64,000 bases of DNA, taken from assembly GCA_963665285.1 (NCBI GenBank), contig OY762266.1, forward strand, positions 2,337,527 to 2,401,526, written 5' to 3'. Positions 15,977 through 57,773 of the stretch are shown piece after piece; position 1 is the first letter of the stretch, and every line of letters starts with the position of its first letter. The DNA comes from Candidatus Poribacteria bacterium. GTDB taxonomy: Bacteria > Poribacteria > WGA-4E > PCPOR2b. A program made the position numbers and the translations under genes. The notes under the pieces are model-generated. The model was given only the letters and a program-made list of their open reading frames with translations, did no database searches and was not told the DNA's origin.

Positions 15977-17271
15977 CCCAATGTTGAAACATTGGGATTC
16001 TTAATAGACTGATTGGTAGACATTAGCATCTCCATGCTATTTTCTTGTTTCGACGAGACAAGCCACGTATTGCTGGTGTGGTCTTACTATCTCTCCACCC
16101 TGATAAATCGGGATCCTTTCGGACAAGCGTTTTACGTCTCCGTGTGTCCCCCGGCGACGTTTCTGAGGTTTATCGCAGCGTTAAGGTCTCTGTCTTGTGT
16201 ATGCCCACAATCGCTGCAATGGTAAGTCCTATCCGATAGTGACAGGTCTTTGTCTTTTGCCCCACAAGCCGAGCAAGTCTTACTGGACGGGTAGAAATTT
16301 TAACGCCTATCCGTTCTGCTTTGTAGGCAAGCATAGTGAGAAAACTGGATAGGGAAGTGTCCGATAATACCTTTGCAAGCCTGTGGTTTTTTAACATACC
16401 TGCAACATTCAGTGACTCAATTCCAATACGACTCGCACCATGGACGATAGCCGTTGTTGCTTGGTGTTGAGCGTCCTGTCGAATGCAGGTGATACGGTAG
16501 TGTAGTTTGGCAAGTTTCGCTTTCGTCTTATGCCAATTCCGACTCCCTTTTTTCCGACGGCTTAACTGACGTTGCAGCCGTTTTAGCTTGCGCTCGTAAC
16601 GCTTTAAGGCTTTGGGGTTTTCGTGATATATACCTTCGGACGTGACAGCTAAGTGCTTGATACCTACGTCAACACCAACAACAGGCAGATGTCGATTGTC
16701 AGCAATAGTATCGTTATCGAAAGTATCAACAGTGATAGAAGCAAACCAACGGTGCACCGTTTTACAAATAACAACCTTAACGATAGTGCCGAGGTGTCGA
16801 AGTTTTTGGAACATGCGAACCCAACCCATCTTGGGTAGTTTTATACGCTGTCCTTCGACGATAGTTGTGCCTCGACCCGCATCCGCTTGGAAACTTTGAC
16901 CCCGTGAACGCTTCTTGAACTTTGGAAAACGACTCTGACCTGACTGCCAACGTTTGACTGCACGCTGAAAGTTGAAGTAAATCGCATTATGAGCAGCGCG
17001 CTGATTGAGTGCTTTACACCAATCGTATTGCTCATGTTTGGTAGCGTTGAATCGCTTGTTTAATTCTATATGTGAACGCCATTGTCCTTCGTCCAAGCTA
17101 GCCTTAAAATCAGCAAGGACATGGTTATACGCAACACGAGCATAGCCACAGTGTTGAGCGAATTGTGTCGATTGAATGTTGTTGGGATCTAAAGCGATTT
17201 TGTGAGTTTTTAACATTGGAAGTGGCTTTAGAAAAAAGGTTCGCTGTCTGACCCAACGCTAAAGCATTGGG
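15977..17271 (-). mobile_element. IS200/IS605-family tnpB-only element (IS1341-type), approximate bounds set by subterminal hairpins
   Basis: Hairpins CCCAATG-TTGAAA-CATTGGG (15977-15996) and CCCAACGC-TAAA-GCATTGGG (17252-17271) flank the tnpB ORF. Both are followed by the shared CATTGGGATT. No tnpA present. Confidence 0.5.
16132..17216 (-). pseudogene. tnpB: TnpB (IS605 OrfB, RuvC-like RNA-guided nuclease family), frameshifted near the C-terminus
   Basis: RuvC-I (VGVDVGIKHLAV) and RuvC-II (IGIESLN) are in the annotated frame. The zinc finger and RuvC-III (NFYPSSKTCSACG...YHCSDCGHTQDRDLNAAINL) are encoded intact in another frame and end at the TAA at 16132-16134. The switch maps to the A4/T4 run at about 16296-16308. 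Confidence 0.75.
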
Positions 17272-31100: not shown

Positions 31101-31195
31101 GGTTCGATAATCACCGTTAAGGAGACTTATGACCCTGTTTTTTCTTAGGCAGAATTCAGGATAAAAGTATTATTGATAGGAGTTACGCACTTGAG

Positions 31196-31257
31196 TTTGT
31201 AGTAGCGCAATTCATTGCGCGTCTTTAAGGTAGTAGGCATACGCTGTATGCCGTAAC
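31196..31257. repeat. composite REP-like element: GTTTGTAGTAGCGCAATTCATTGCGCGTCTT (copy 2) + GTAGGCATACGCTGTATGCCGTAAC
   Basis: The first module is identical to 7968-7998. The second module (hairpin GGCATA-N5-TATGCC + GTAAC) matches 3170-3194. Confidence 0.5.
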
Positions 31258-53093: not shown

Positions 53094-54110
53094 TTAATCT
53101 GGCGTTTTAGATTCGTGGATCTTCATCGCAACCCGTAATTTCGCACTTCGGGACCGAGGATTGCGTCGAATTTCATCGGGGGTTGGAACTATTGGACGCT
53201 TGGTCAGTATTTCAAGAGTAGGTGTATGCTGACATATACAGATAGGAGTCTTCGGCGGGCAGATGCAAGCACGTGAGAGGGCGCGGAATTGTTCTTTAAC
53301 AATTCGATCTTCGAGAGAATGGAAAGAGATGATGCATAAGCGTCCACCGGGCTTCAAAGCGGCAGAGGCACAATGTATCCCGGAATGCAGGTTTTTAAGT
53401 TCATCGTTAATATAAATTCTTAACGCCTGAAAAACCCTTGTCGCGGGATGGATGCGCCAACCCGTTGATTTGTGGGGAATCGCATCCAGAACGAGTTCAG
53501 CCAGTTGACCCGTTGTTGAGATTGGCTTGCGTTTTCGAGCGCGAACAATCTGGCGCGCAATCTTTTTAGACCAACGCTCTTCACCGAATTGTGTAAAAAT
53601 CGTTGCGAGCGCGTCCTCTGGATGGCGGTTCACGACGCGCGCTGCTGATAGAGATTGGCTGGCATCCATCCGCATATCTAAGGGACCAGAGCGATTGAAA
53701 CTAAACCCTCTTGCCGGCGTATCAAGCTGCAAAGATGACACCCCTAGGTCTAGTAAAATGCCATCAACTTGCGGAATCGTGGCTTCCTGCGAATCTCCAC
53801 TGCAATGCAGTTGAGGTAGCTGATCTAAGTGAGCAAAATTATCACTAACAAATGCTACCCGCTCCTCATATTCGCGCAGCCTTTCCTCGGCAATAGCCAA
53901 CGCCTCCGCGTCCAAATCAATCCCAAGTAGGAACCCTTTCGGCGCAGATTTTTGTAAAACGACAGCGGCATGCCCACCTAATCCAACCGTGCCATCCACA
54001 TAAAAACCGTGGTTTTTCGGTTGTAAAAACTGAATCACTTCATCAACTAGAACAGGTATGTGGTCCTCACCCATCTCTTTCTGAGTCTCCCTCGTTTTCG
54101 TTCTGCTCAA
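53094..54110 (-). CDS. rsmH: 16S rRNA (cytosine1402-N4)-methyltransferase
   Basis: HIPVLVDEV...DGTVGLGGH...SAM-binding motifs of MraW/RsmH. The start could instead be the internal ATG at 54074. Confidence 0.9.
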   Translation of the reverse strand: MSRTKTRETQKEMGEDHIPVLVDEVIQFLQPKNHGFYVDGTVGLGGHAAVVLQKSAPKGFLLGIDLDAEALAIAEERLREYEERVAFVSDNFAHLDQLPQLHCSGDSQEATIPQVDGILLDLGVSSLQLDTPARGFSFNRSGPLDMRMDASQSLSAARVVNRHPEDALATIFTQFGEERWSKKIARQIVRARKRKPISTTGQLAELVLDAIPHKSTGWRIHPATRVFQALRIYINDELKNLHSGIHCASAALKPGGRLCIISFHSLEDRIVKEQFRALSRACICPPKTPICICQHTPTLEILTKRPIVPTPDEIRRNPRSRSAKLRVAMKIHESKTPD

Positions 54111-54171
54111 TCAGGCATACACCCCTTTCCCGCGTTGATTTGGGAGGTGCTTACCAATCTTGCGTGCAATG

Positions 54172-55556
54172 CCCCATCCCTTTAGGGTGGGGATGTAGCA
54201 CGCCCAAGTGCGTTGTTAGTCAAAAAACGGTTGAGATTGCAGGTAAAAGATGCTACAGTTACCTTGGCTTTCGTGAGAGGGCGCAACTTCGCTGCTTAGT
54301 GGCACCTCTCACCTCCAATTGCGTGGACATGAAATCCAGATAGCCAATTGCATAATGAAAACCTACAAGTTCAAAATGTATAGCAACCACAATAATCGTG
54401 AGTTGCAAAAAACGATTGACAGCCATGCTCATGTGTGGAATCACTTTGTGGCGTTGTGTCGCCGATACTATGCTATCTACGGGACATATCCGGGTAAGAA
54501 AGCACTGATGCGCCACTTAACCAAGTTGAAGCGGCTTCCCCGCTTTGCCCATTGGAATCAGTTGCCGAGTCAATCGTTGCAAGACGTAATAGACCGACTT
54601 GATAAAGCGTACTCTAAACTGTTTACTGACCGCAAAAGCGGCAAACGTTCCGGTCGTCCCCGTTTCAAGAGACGTAAACTATACAAGTCCTACACGCTCA
54701 AGCAAGCGGGTTGGAAACTGCTACAAGACAACTATATCCGTATCGGCAAACGGATATACCGATATTTCAAAAGTCGGAAAGTCTTAGGCACGCCGAGACG
54801 CTGTACGATTAAGCGGGACAGCGTAGGGGACGTATGGCTAATCATTCTGACAGATCATGTAGAGATGCCCTTGAATCGACCCACGACGGGTAACAGCGCG
54901 GGGTTCGATTTTGGACTCAAGCGGTATCTCACCGGGTCCGACTCCAATGACTACGACTCTCCACAATTCTTCAAACGGAGTCTCAACGCTATCAAACGTG
55001 CAAACCGCAACCGCTCACGAAAGGTTAAAGGTTCAAACAACCGTGAACGTGCGAGACTCAATGTTGCACGGAAACACCGACGTATTGCCAATCAAAGAGC
55101 CGACTTCCATTGGCAGCTAGCGCATGAGCTAACAGACCGGTATGATTGGATTTCACTGGAGACCCTCACCATTAAGGGCATGAAAAGCCTTTGGGGTCGT
55201 AAGGTCTCTGATTTGGGGTTCTATGACTTCGTCCAGAAACTGAAGTATATTAACTCTAAGAAACAGCATCGTGAAGTCCGATTCATTGATAAGTGGTATC
55301 CATCAAGCCGAACCTGTCACGTCTGTGGCGCAATTAATCAAGATCTGAACCTTCGTGACAGAACATGGCAATGTCCAAATTGCCACACAGAGTTGGATAG
55401 AGACCGTAACGCTGCGGTCAATATTCATAGGGTAGGGGCATCTACCCTCTCAGAAGAGGTCGTAAGTCCCAGTTCACCGGGCTAACTTCGTTGATAGAGC
55501 AATTCGACACCTTAAAAGGGAACGGGTGAGAATACCCACCCTTTAGGGTGTGGGAG
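54172..55556 (+). mobile_element. IS200/IS605-family tnpB-only element (IS1341-type), approximate bounds set by subterminal hairpins
   Basis: CCCCATCCC-TTTA-GGGTGGGG (54172-54192) upstream and CCCACCC-TTTA-GGGTGTGGG (55535-55556) downstream of tnpB share the CCCTTTAGGGTG core. No tnpA. Confidence 0.5.
54355..55485 (+). CDS. tnpB: TnpB (IS605 OrfB family RuvC-like, putatively RNA-guided, endonuclease), apparently intact
   Basis: MKTYKFKMYSNHNN N-terminus. RuvC-I (AGFDFGLKRYL), RuvC-II (ISLETLTIKGM), zinc finger (CHVCG...CPNCH) and RuvC-III (DRDRNAAVNI) all present in one frame. Confidence 0.85.
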   Translation: MKTYKFKMYSNHNNRELQKTIDSHAHVWNHFVALCRRYYAIYGTYPGKKALMRHLTKLKRLPRFAHWNQLPSQSLQDVIDRLDKAYSKLFTDRKSGKRSGRPRFKRRKLYKSYTLKQAGWKLLQDNYIRIGKRIYRYFKSRKVLGTPRRCTIKRDSVGDVWLIILTDHVEMPLNRPTTGNSAGFDFGLKRYLTGSDSNDYDSPQFFKRSLNAIKRANRNRSRKVKGSNNRERARLNVARKHRRIANQRADFHWQLAHELTDRYDWISLETLTIKGMKSLWGRKVSDLGFYDFVQKLKYINSKKQHREVRFIDKWYPSSRTCHVCGAINQDLNLRDRTWQCPNCHTELDRDRNAAVNIHRVGASTLSEEVVSPSSPG

Positions 55557-55713
55557 TATGTCAATAAACAGCCCAGACCACTCACCTCAAACAGGAGGAT
55601 TATAGCACAGGCGCATCCCATGTCAAGCGTAAAATTGGCATAGAAGGCGAGGCACAAAAACGTAGGTAGACACGTTCAAGCAATCCTCCACAGATAGAAG
55701 TTACACACTTCAG

Positions 55714-55734
55714 TCTGTAGTAGCGCGTTCATTG
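55714..55734. repeat. variant copy of the GTAGTAGCGC...CATTGC REP-like repeat
   Basis: CTGTAGTAGCGCGTTCATTGC compared with GTTTGTAGTAGCGCAATTCATTGCGCG at 7968 and 31196. Confidence 0.35.
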
Positions 55735-55866
55735 CTTTCTCCTCTCCCCTGCTTTCGGGGGAATAAAGGGGGACAGGGGAGTTAGAGGGGGTGCGGTTCA
55801 ACGCAGCGCAAGACTGTGAACGTTCAACTGCGTCAGTCCTAACAGATTAGAAATCGTCAACAAATA

Positions 55867-56433
55867 TCACATGCCCTCTGTGAGGATCTGGTGGAGAGGA
55901 ACGTCCCAAGTCTGCGGATAGGTATCTGTCACAATTTGCGCTTCGTAAGCTAATCCAATCCAAACTGCTTGCGGACATTGCGGCAGGAATCGATCATAGA
56001 AGCCAGCACCGTATCCGATCCGATAGCCCTTGGGGTCGAAAGCAACACCGGGAACAAAGATTAAATCGATCTGGTTCAAAGGAAAAGGAGGACAGGTTTC
56101 CCTATTCGGCTGGTACACACCGTATGGATGGAGAACAAGATCTTTTTTCGCATCTACGATACGGTGTGGTGTAAGGGTTCGCTGTTTCATACGCATCACA
56201 GGGGCAAGCGCAATCTTATTCCGAACCAACAGATAATCAAGCAGACCACCGGTCTCTACCTCACTTCGCATACTGAGGTAGACTAGGACTGCATTGGCTC
56301 GGTTCGCCTCAATCAGGTTGATTGCATGGTCAACAATCCGTCGGCTCAACTTAGCTCTTACACTTGGTGGGAGGCTGTCTCGTTTGCGGAGGACTTCCGT
56401 CCGAAGCCGCTCGCGCTCCTGTCTCTGGTTCAT
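55867..56433 (-). CDS. 5-formyltetrahydrofolate cyclo-ligase
   Basis: MTHFS family pattern (VLVYLSMRSEVET...GYGAGFYDRFL). Start moved to the ATG at 56433, which has GAGGGGA upstream. Confidence 0.8.
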   Translation of the reverse strand: MNQRQERERLRTEVLRKRDSLPPSVRAKLSRRIVDHAINLIEANRANAVLVYLSMRSEVETGGLLDYLLVRNKIALAPVMRMKQRTLTPHRIVDAKKDLVLHPYGVYQPNRETCPPFPLNQIDLIFVPGVAFDPKGYRIGYGAGFYDRFLPQCPQAVWIGLAYEAQIVTDTYPQTWDVPLHQILTEGM

Positions 56434-56453
56434 TTGGTTGGTATCCCGTCCCC

Positions 56454-57773
56454 TCACGCCTGCCATTCGATCTGGTCAATATACTTGGCAAGGGTATCGC
56501 GGAAGGTTGATGGCTTCATTTTGAGCAGTTTTGCGGCTTGCGTTTTGTTTCCCTGTGCTTTTTTCATTGCCCAACCAATGAGTTCACGCTCGGTCGACCG
56601 GATAATCTCTTGGAAGGAGATCTCACTCAACGCCTCATCTAAGCTGACCTGTGCTGGCAGTTTCAACTCAAGCGGAATATCATCGGCGGTAATATCTGCT
56701 CCGTCTCCAACCGTTACAAGTCGTTCGATCACGTTTTCTAATTCGCGGATGTTGCCGGGCCATGGATATACTGTGAGCACCTCGACAGCTTCGGGAGCGA
56801 TGTGGATGGCGGCATTGGGCGAGAATAGATCTAAAAAGTGATTAATCAAGAGAGGAATATCCTCGACCCGTTCACGTAACGGTGGCAGAAAAATCGGGAC
56901 AACGTTTAGGCGGTAGAAGAGATCGTCCCGAAATTCTCCATTCTGAACTTTCGTACGCAAATTCTTGGTTGTCGCAGCGATAATCCGCACGTCCCTCCTT
57001 TGTGTGTTTCTGTCTAGGTTTAGCTGCTGCCCCTCTAGTGCCGGTAGAAATTTGGCCTGCAGTGCATCGGGAAGGGCATCAATATCTTTAAGAAAAAGCG
57101 TCCCTTTACGCCCAAACTCGTCTTCCGTCTGCTTGTCTCCGAATAACTCTCGATCTAATGTTTCGGTAAGTACTCCTGAACAGTTTACGATCCTAAAGGG
57201 ATGGAGTCTGCGCGCGCTGTTAAAATGAATTGATTTTGCAACGAGCGTTTTTCCTGTGCCATGTTCCCCATAGATTAGCACAGTACTCTGGGTGTCGGAG
57301 ACATTTTCAAGCAGGTCAAAGAGGTCTTGTATCGCTTGACTTTTCCCGATAATATGATGGTATGGAGAGCGTCCTTTCATGGGAACTTTTAGCTGTGAAC
57401 GCTGTTTACCTCTGCCGTGGAGCATTTTCAGTTTATCCAGCATCTGAATCAGTTCTTCGCTGGAAAAAGGTTTCTTGATATAGTTATACGCCCCAAATTT
57501 CATTGCTTCTACAGCGGTTTCAACACTCGCATAGGCAGTCATGACAATCACAACAATATGGGGCTGCTCTTTCTGGACGCGCTTGAGAAATTCAATTCCG
57601 TGCATCTTTGGCAGGCGCAGATCGGTAACAAGAACATCGAAATGTTCGTTCTGAACAAGTTGTAGTCCAATCGCTGGAGACTCAACCGCGATGGTATCGT
57701 AGTTAGCCTCGCGCAAATCATCACGTAGTGTAATTAGTTTGATTTTTTCATCATCAACAACCAGTACTTTCAA
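56454..57773 (-). CDS. sigma-54-dependent response regulator (NtrC/Fis family: REC + AAA+ + HTH)
   Basis: REC domain (VVDDE...D...K), AAA+ sigma-54 interaction domain (GEHGTGKTLVAKSIH, plus a GAFTGA-like region) and a C-terminal Fis-type HTH. It starts with TTG overlapping the HK stop (TTGA). Confidence 0.85.
   Translation of the reverse strand: MKVLVVDDEKIKLITLRDDLREANYDTIAVESPAIGLQLVQNEHFDVLVTDLRLPKMHGIEFLKRVQKEQPHIVVIVMTAYASVETAVEAMKFGAYNYIKKPFSSEELIQMLDKLKMLHGRGKQRSQLKVPMKGRSPYHHIIGKSQAIQDLFDLLENVSDTQSTVLIYGEHGTGKTLVAKSIHFNSARRLHPFRIVNCSGVLTETLDRELFGDKQTEDEFGRKGTLFLKDIDALPDALQAKFLPALEGQQLNLDRNTQRRDVRIIAATTKNLRTKVQNGEFRDDLFYRLNVVPIFLPPLRERVEDIPLLINHFLDLFSPNAAIHIAPEAVEVLTVYPWPGNIRELENVIERLVTVGDGADITADDIPLELKLPAQVSLDEALSEISFQEIIRSTERELIGWAMKKAQGNKTQAAKLLKMKPSTFRDTLAKYIDQIEWQA

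Follow-up and report, generated by a model that had tools for sequence, protein, structure and literature searches.

Closest described systems

Elements that carry tnpB alone, with a guide RNA at its 3′ end, are very common. The systems closest to the locus described here are IS608 of Helicobacter pylori, which encodes a Y1 transposase (TnpA) together with TnpB; ISDra2 of Deinococcus radiodurans (PDB 8EXA, 8H1J), which also has tnpA; and the IS1341-type tnpB-only elements with 3′ sense-overlapping RNAs (sotRNAs; PMC4615843). We compared them with a locus at 54155-55564 of a 64,000-nucleotide stretch of DNA from a Candidatus Poribacteria bacterium (contig OY762266.1, positions 2,337,527 to 2,401,526; the whole stretch is hereafter called the window and numbered from its first letter). 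As a TnpB element this locus is ordinary and belongs to a known kind of system. With a probability of roughly 85%, it is a non-autonomous IS200/IS605-family insertion sequence of the IS1341 type, which carries tnpB alone, has IS608-like ends and resides in a Poribacteria chromosome.

The IS608 transposase reads a subterminal hairpin together with the four nucleotides on the 5′ side of its foot and the site of cleavage (PMC3201880). Cleavage occurs 3′ of TTAC, 19 nt 5′ of the left hairpin foot, and at TCAA, 10 nt 3′ of the right foot; the tetranucleotides 5′ of the two feet, GL (AAAG) and GR (GAAT), recognise these cleavage sites (PMC3201880, PMC5934647). For the omega-RNA of ISDra2, cryo-electron microscopy has resolved a 116-nt scaffold with stems 1-4, a pseudoknot between positions -5 to -3 and a region inside stem 1, and a UUUA tetraloop at -20 to -17 (PMC10097598).

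Family and boundaries of the element

Of the 166 confirmed relatives obtained in one scan across representative genomes, 79 loci were kept for comparison. Among the GTDB representative genomes scanned, all 79 lie in metagenome-assembled genomes of Candidatus Poribacteria. This bacterial family differs from the IS1341-type/sotRNA elements in being found, within the genomes scanned, only in that phylum and in having its ends, target-adjacent motif (TAM) and RNA structure defined from 79 copies. Up to ~25 copies occur per genome, with protein identities of 67-95%; the closest relative of the window copy is 95% identical and sits at a different locus. In a protein database, 3938 clusters matched this TnpB at E <= 1e-30.

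The boundaries were fixed by alignment with the other copies, as the preliminary description of this DNA had proposed.
54151-54154, + strand: target TTAC, the host tetranucleotide directly 5′ of the left end
54155-55564, + strand: whole element, 1410 bp, from comparison with 79 related copies

In BLAST comparisons of the locus with the 79 copies, similarity repeatedly begins at 54150/54151 and stops at 55564/55565. On the left, the copies are alike only after a conserved TTAC, and the sequence upstream of it is unrelated between them; in its place, TTAT stands in about 10 copies and TTAG or TTAA in a few. On the right, all copies finish in ...GGGAGTATGTCAA (a few in ...CAC), and the bases beyond are unrelated and carry no repeated TTAC. 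Because the base directly after the right end is free to vary, the C that follows TTAC belongs to the element as its first base; the element therefore spans 54155-55564 and the guide region begins at 55565. These positions replace the earlier estimates of 54140-55660 for the span and of a guide just beyond about 55556. As read from the aligned copies, insertion occurred 3′ of TTAC and the tetranucleotide was not duplicated.

Two pairs of copies (L049/L050 and L016/L019) are 100% identical within one genome and have different flanks. Since identical copies occupy different loci, the family moved recently. BLAST of the element against plasmids gave no match, no TnpB relatives were found in the viral contigs scanned, and the 64 kb window contains no miniature derivatives consisting of the left end and the right end only. 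A literature search found no paper linking TnpB and Poribacteria. In one Poribacteria genome, two diverged family copies (~67% identity; L004:544-1947, - strand, and L004:2792-4210) stand head to head less than 1 kb apart.

Both ends resemble those of IS608

Within the 64 kb, the 12-mer CCCTTTAGGGTG is found at two positions only, 54178 and 55539 (~0.19 occurrences expected by chance; 1 of 100 shuffles reached two). Each occurrence forms the core of an imperfect hairpin, in agreement with the preliminary description, which had seen matching bulged hairpins at both ends. Both subterminal hairpins are retained, with compensatory changes, at the ends of all the other genomic copies, whereas their absence there had been named beforehand as grounds for giving up that description; terminal inverted repeats are absent. 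The features of the two ends are as follows.
54155-54263, + strand: left end, comprising outer stem, inner hairpin, AATG and promoter-like site
54162-54167 and 54198-54203, + strand: left outer stem, GCGTGC/GCACGC, covarying between copies
54168-54171, + strand: AATG, 5′ of the left hairpin foot, at the position of IS608 GL
54172-54192, + strand: left inner imperfect hairpin, CCCCATCCC-TTTA-GGGTGGGG
55530-55564, + strand: right-end transposition signals, namely GAAT, hairpin, AGTATG and TCAA
55530-55533, + strand: GAAT, directly 5′ of the right hairpin foot
55534-55554, + strand: right imperfect hairpin, (A)CCCACCC-TTTA-GGGTGTGGG, with a TTTA loop and T55551 bulged
55561-55564, + strand: terminal TCAA, the last bases of the element, preceded by AGTATG (TCAC in a few copies)

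The outer stem exists in several versions among the copies (GCGTGC/GCACGC, GCGGGC/GCCCGC, CCGATCT/AGATCGG and CCGTTCT/AGAACGG), and the DNA fold of the left end has a z of -2.9. GAAT lies in a motif, GAGAAT, whose bases are conserved in roughly >=90% of copies. The GL position is occupied by AATG in the window copy and by TAAG or AAAA-like sequences in others, similar but not identical to the AAAG of IS608. The element finishes AGTATGTCAA, 10 nt past the right hairpin foot.

The likeness to IS608 thus extends to insertion 3′ of TTAC without target duplication, a right end at TCAA whose cut falls 10 nt past the foot of the hairpin, GAAT directly 5′ of the right hairpin, and imperfect subterminal hairpins at both ends without terminal inverted repeats. 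The differences are that TTAC lies 17 nt from the left hairpin foot, compared to 19 nt in IS608 (PMC3201880), that AATG rather than AAAG stands 5′ of the left hairpin, that this hairpin is nested in an additional covarying outer stem, that the 200-nt left end holds its own promoter and a pseudoknotted leader, and that tnpA is missing, making the window element non-autonomous. From these motifs, both ends are predicted to carry the DNA signals of an IS608-type Y1 transposase, and TTAC is expected to serve both as the TAM for TnpB and as the left cleavage site for the transposase.

The element encodes a full-length TnpB

The single gene of the element is an intact open reading frame (ORF).
54355-55485, + strand: tnpB coding sequence, 376 aa (377 codons with the stop)

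Its product matches the Pfam families OrfB_IS605 (6e-22) and Cas12f1-like_TNB (4e-19) and the NCBIfam model guided_TnpB (2e-70; score 238 against a cut-off of 100 bits). The RuvC triad consists of D185, E269 and D350 and the zinc finger of C321, C324, C340 and C343 (CxxC...CxxC); the ISDra2 residues aligned with the triad are D191, E278 and D361. The ISDra2 TnpB (8EXA/8H1J) aligned over residues 2-361 at an E-value of 1e-41, and its catalytic D/E/D residues as well as the two CxxC pairs fell in register. These findings uphold the earlier view that all RuvC motifs and the zinc finger are present, while the length of 377 aa given with it counted the stop codon. The triad and the zinc-finger cysteines are kept in 74-75 of the 75 intact copies. 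At least 72 of the 79 relatives retain an intact ORF of ~368-390 aa, and five are broken by early stops. Judging by its sequence, the protein is a full-length, intact TnpB and a predicted RNA-guided nuclease.

A second, unrelated TnpB gene is located elsewhere in the window, at 16170-17216 on the - strand and continuing to ~16150 (OrfB_IS605 2.9e-25; ~26% identity to the first). The part encoding its zinc finger and RuvC-III motif (…CSACG…CSDCG…DRDLNAAINL) shifts frame from ~16295, and the gene is either a frameshifted pseudogene or affected by a long-read indel error.

A conserved structure overlaps the 3′ end of tnpB

The preliminary description had expected an omega-RNA scaffold within 55400-55620, containing the right-end hairpin. 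A scaffold is indeed predicted there, though its conserved part is confined to ~55430-55564 and the hairpin is only its last stem.
55430-55564, + strand: predicted omega-RNA scaffold, ~135 nt, supported by covariation, reduced synonymous variation and an ISDra2-like layout
55430-35 and 55442-47, + strand: stem 1
55437-41 and 55558-62, + strand: pseudoknot between the invariant stem-1 loop, GGCAU, and AUGUC
55456-60 and 55485-89, + strand: stem 2, enclosing stem 3
55466-55482, + strand: stem 3
55490-55529, + strand: variable region
55534-40 and 55547-54, + strand: terminal stem, identical with the right-end hairpin, with T55551 bulged and a UUUA loop
55565-55584, + strand: predicted guide, TAAACAGCCCAGACCACTCA, in the host DNA flanking the right end, with an assumed length of 16-20 nt

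We tested this hand-built structure on an alignment of the last 180 nt of 74 distinct copies (alignment A1). Paired cells amounted to 95.9%, compared to 38-53% when the partners were slid by 1-3 columns. Compensatory changes were found at 12 pairs (187 cells), and none of 500 shuffles reached the covariation score. For example, the stem-1 pair 55434-55443 alternates between UA (26 copies), GC (25) and AU (22); stem 3 has compensatory changes in five of its six pairs; and the pseudoknot, paired in 74 of 74 copies, contains a pair (55440-55559) that is AU in 67 copies, GC in five and GU in two. Many G-U pairs of the scaffold fit the + strand.

Synonymous variation gave a second line of evidence. 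Across the 75 intact copies, the normalised entropy of synonymous codons is ~0.6 along tnpB, then falls to 0.40 and finally to 0.23 across the last 25 codons (55405-55485). A drop of this kind marks a second constraint superimposed on the tnpB coding sequence. Together with the pairing, it bears out the earlier suggestion of a conserved structured RNA across the tnpB 3′ end. The comparison supports a conserved, covarying structure formed by the 3′ part of tnpB and the right end, a predicted omega-RNA, in which the CCCTTTAGGG hairpin is predicted to be the transposase right-end hairpin and the last omega-RNA stem at once.

The layout is that of the ISDra2 system in several respects: besides full-length homology between the TnpB proteins, with the same catalytic and zinc-binding residues, the RNA overlaps the tnpB 3′ end, the bases immediately 5′ of the guide are paired with the stem-1 loop, stem 3 is nested within stem 2, and a UUUA loop closes the final hairpin ~20 nt upstream of the guide. 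The two differ in detail. The pseudoknot occupies -7 to -3 (five pairs) here and -5 to -3 in ISDra2, and the UUUA loop -24 to -21 here and -20 to -17 in ISDra2. The TAM is TTAC rather than TTGAT, and the scaffold has ~135 nt as opposed to 116 nt and includes an additional variable segment that separates stem 2 from the last hairpin. Unlike ISDra2, the window element lacks tnpA.

The covariance-model search that had been proposed as a check did not yield a known family. Rfam searches of 53900-56000, and of the left end and of the right end separately (E up to 10), returned chance-level matches only, with no curated omega-RNA, intron or ribozyme family. Three other foldings were set aside. RNAalifold, run on the MAFFT alignment, gave fragments and a 3-bp long-range GAC/GUC pairing, which was dropped in favour of the stem-1-loop pseudoknot because the latter has an AU-to-GC compensatory change and a counterpart in ISDra2. 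An alternative local hairpin, TCTC/GAGG (55448-51/55456-59), is ~75% paired compared to 94.6% for the long-range stem 2. The single-sequence minimum-energy fold of the right end, pairing 55507-16 with 55541-50, is unsupported by the other copies.

Within the window, TTAC followed by the guide has a single match, the right-end junction, which has TCAA in the TTAC position. The TAM is therefore missing from the occupied site, whose protection from TnpB cleavage would be consistent with published logic.

The left end contains a promoter-like site and a structured leader

Upstream of tnpB, the left end contains a promoter-like site, followed by a leader that runs from the predicted transcription start to just before the tnpB ATG.
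54231-54236 and 54254-54259, + strand: promoter-like site, -35 TTGAGA and TG-extended -10 TACAGT, with a 17-nt spacer and conserved hexamers
54264-54347, + strand: structured leader, ~85 nt
54264-72 with 54331-38 (proximal) or 54339-47 (distal), + strand: leader helix P1
54273-80 and 54305-12, + strand: P2
54287-93 and 54298-54304, + strand: P3, weakened in the window copy
54281-86 and 54319-24, + strand: helix X, a pseudoknot that crosses P2

The family consensus of the promoter is TTGAnn ... TGnTAYAnT. In an alignment of 60 distinct copies (alignment A2), pairing of the leader reached 93.9% for proximal P1, 92.0% for distal P1, 94.6% for P2 and 96.4% for P3. Compensatory changes affect 24 of 30 pairs, and none of 500 shuffles attained the covariation score. 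Helix X, which is hypervariable in sequence, was scored copy by copy, since MAFFT mis-registers it between subfamilies: at least six contiguous pairs form in 48 of the 60 copies, in more than 20 sequence variants, compared to 3.6% in cross-copy controls. Many G-U pairs in the leader point to the + strand. In L017 and L048, the 5′ strand of helix X is deleted (alignment A2 columns 33-39) and its 3′ partner is kept, making these copies natural mutants that could reveal its role.

The 5′ strand of P1 is complementary to two tandem GAAAGCC-like segments and covaries with both. Between the end of the distal segment and the tnpB AUG, which has no Shine-Dalgarno sequence, there are 5-9 nt. Distal P1 pairing would block ribosome access and proximal pairing would free the AUG, while the pseudoknotted core could act as a sensor for TnpB, another protein or a small molecule. 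The conserved leader probably controls or tunes tnpB expression. We suggest only tentatively that it may represent an undescribed class of cis-acting RNA that switches tnpB translation; the leader had no Rfam match (left end, E up to 10) and a literature search found no paper describing it. It could instead be a structure of the top DNA strand.

The leader of the IS200 tnpA gene of Salmonella forms a stem-loop that hides the ribosome-binding site. Both are structured left-end leaders directly upstream of a start codon that plausibly limit translation, but the leader described here precedes tnpB rather than tnpA and comprises four covarying helices with a pseudoknot and two alternative closing helices, compared to a single hairpin in Salmonella. 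Other interpretations of the leader and left end were rejected. Its helix order is similar to that of hepatitis delta virus-like ribozymes, but P3 consists of 7 bp and a tetraloop instead of 3 bp and a 7-nt loop, and no Rfam match was found. An upstream ATG does not mark a conserved ORF, since frame and stop vary between copies. An IStron, i.e., a group I intron fused to IS605/IS607, is contradicted by the lack of any Rfam intron or ribozyme match in the left end at E up to 10 and by a leader of only ~85 nt.

Search for the transposase and for an empty site

The preliminary description had stated that no TnpA accompanies tnpB, and this held for the other copies searched as well. We searched with tblastn for Y1 transposases, using an IS608 TnpA probe that was checked against Pfam Y1_Tnp (1e-42). 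Neither the 64 kb window nor the 3 kb around each of the 79 copies (~560 kb of related loci) gave a match, and the ORFs upstream of 21 inspected copies were ordinary host genes, with no suitable tnpA among them. With no Y1 transposase in the window or beside any copy, the element is therefore non-autonomous. Its movement would be explained most simply by a TnpA encoded elsewhere in the genome and acting in trans.

The empty site is predicted to lie upstream of rsmH and to read GGGAGGTGCTTAC joined directly to TAAACAGCCCAGACC. An exact-protein look-up of TnpB and RsmH matched the source contig only (ENA ERZ25084387 ctg36534l, 2.2 Mb), and a metagenome scan for an uninterrupted orthologue, based on RsmH, retrieved only relatives of <=49% identity from other lineages.

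Proposed cycle of the element

We propose that TnpA acting in trans would excise and insert the top strand of the element by the peel-and-paste route described for IS608, with the Y1 transposase reading the subterminal imperfect hairpins on single-stranded DNA. The tnpB mRNA would start at the left-end promoter, and its 3′ part, ~55430-55564 plus ~16-20 nt of flank from 55565, would become the omega-RNA. TnpB would then bind the pseudoknotted scaffold and cut empty-site copies (TTAC then TAAACAGCCCAGACC...), repair by recombination from an occupied copy would restore the element, and the occupied site would be spared since TCAA replaces the TTAC TAM.

The locus offers one predicted nuclease of 376 aa together with a precisely placed expected TAM (TTAC), exact ends and a ~135-nt scaffold backed by covariation, and the family provides a natural panel of more than 70 diverged protein and RNA pairs suited to testing or engineering a compact editor. 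The conserved pseudoknotted leader points to an extra layer of control over TnpB expression. Moreover, the presence of a large, recently mobile tnpB family in sponge-symbiont Poribacteria, with no transposase gene beside the examined copies, raises the question of what mobilises it.

Genomic setting and alternative explanations

The host genes around the element are all on the - strand, so that the tnpB element is antisense to them.
55867-56466, - strand: 5-formyltetrahydrofolate cyclo-ligase gene
55626-55599, - strand: sigma-70 consensus promoter, TTGACA-16-TG-TATAAT, 12/12, 35 nt outside the right end
53094-54074, - strand: rsmH, followed by ftsL and ftsI

The outside promoter points through the element, which lies between it and rsmH, toward rsmH/ftsL/ftsI. 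Most simply, it would be the original promoter of the division and cell-wall (dcw) operon, moved 1.4 kb from rsmH by the insertion, and transcripts from it would run antisense to tnpB and the omega-RNA. A weak terminator-like site on the - strand at 55541-55524 (GGGUG...CACCC then a short U-rich run) could attenuate this read-through; terminator-like sites in the region are no more numerous than expected by chance.

Several points weigh against the interpretation of the locus as a mobilisable tnpB element with a working guide RNA. The search of the window and of the regions flanking the 79 loci revealed no TnpA partner, and neither the exact-protein look-up nor the RsmH metagenome scan recovered an orthologous empty site. 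The production of the omega-RNA, its 5′ end and the length of its guide are all inferred. The ~40-nt variable segment at 55490-55529 has no counterpart in ISDra2, and only 55% of its cells are paired in the MAFFT alignment. Expression of the omega-RNA and tnpB could be disturbed by the outside promoter, which points through both in antisense orientation. The window copy also departs from the family consensus in stem 3, where it has an A-C mismatch (55471/55478), in the right hairpin, where A55534 replaces a C that pairs with G55554, and in leader helix P3, which is weakened.

These departures suggest that the window copy might be an inert relic of a family that is or was active, left without a working TnpB-omega-RNA complex or no longer mobilisable. 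The stem-3 mismatch, the foot pair lost from the right hairpin through A55534, the four P3 pairs in place of the usual six to seven, the strength of the antisense promoter and the clear pseudogenes among the relatives (5/79) would all accord with this explanation. We nevertheless consider it unlikely. The ORF is unbroken and retains every catalytic and zinc-binding residue, the pseudoknot, stem 1, stem 2, TTAC, GAAT and TCAA are likewise intact, and a relative 95% identical to this copy occupies a different locus. Moreover, the A-C mismatch is common to many intact copies (for example L001-L004 and L007-L009) and A55534 is shared with L003, L014 and L017; both are therefore family variants and not private damage.

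A second possibility is that the right-end pairings act only as single-stranded DNA signals for the transposase, without production of a guide RNA. IS608 TnpA uses exactly these DNA features, the terminal hairpin, GAAT and TCAA, and the orientation of G-U or G-T pairs cannot discriminate here, as the same strand serves as DNA top strand and as RNA. However, the covarying helices and pseudoknot reach 135 nt inward into the coding sequence, where they lower synonymous variation, and their layout resembles the solved ISDra2 omega-RNA. TnpB is also under purifying selection with an intact active site, and such a protein needs a guide RNA. This makes the possibility a very improbable one.

It is scarcely credible that the protein is a domesticated TldR-type TnpB whose guide serves to regulate the neighbouring rsmH/dcw operon, and not a transposon nuclease: although a perfect promoter on one side and rsmH on the other flank the element, and the predicted guide corresponds to the beginning of that transcript region, domesticated TnpB regulators have lost the RuvC triad, which is intact here, the same element stands at dozens of unrelated loci with unrelated guides and transposon ends instead of as a single copy, and a target with a TTAC TAM is gone from the occupied locus.

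Outside the element, a short interspersed repeat with the hairpin GAAGT-TACAC-ACTTC occurs twice in the window, at 55693-55726 and 31175-31208, and again in other Poribacteria loci (L013:451-547, L059:4374-4401 and L055:6759-6786). The copy at 55693-55726 lies downstream of the cyclo-ligase gene and is possibly a terminator-like or repetitive extragenic palindromic (REP)-like element.

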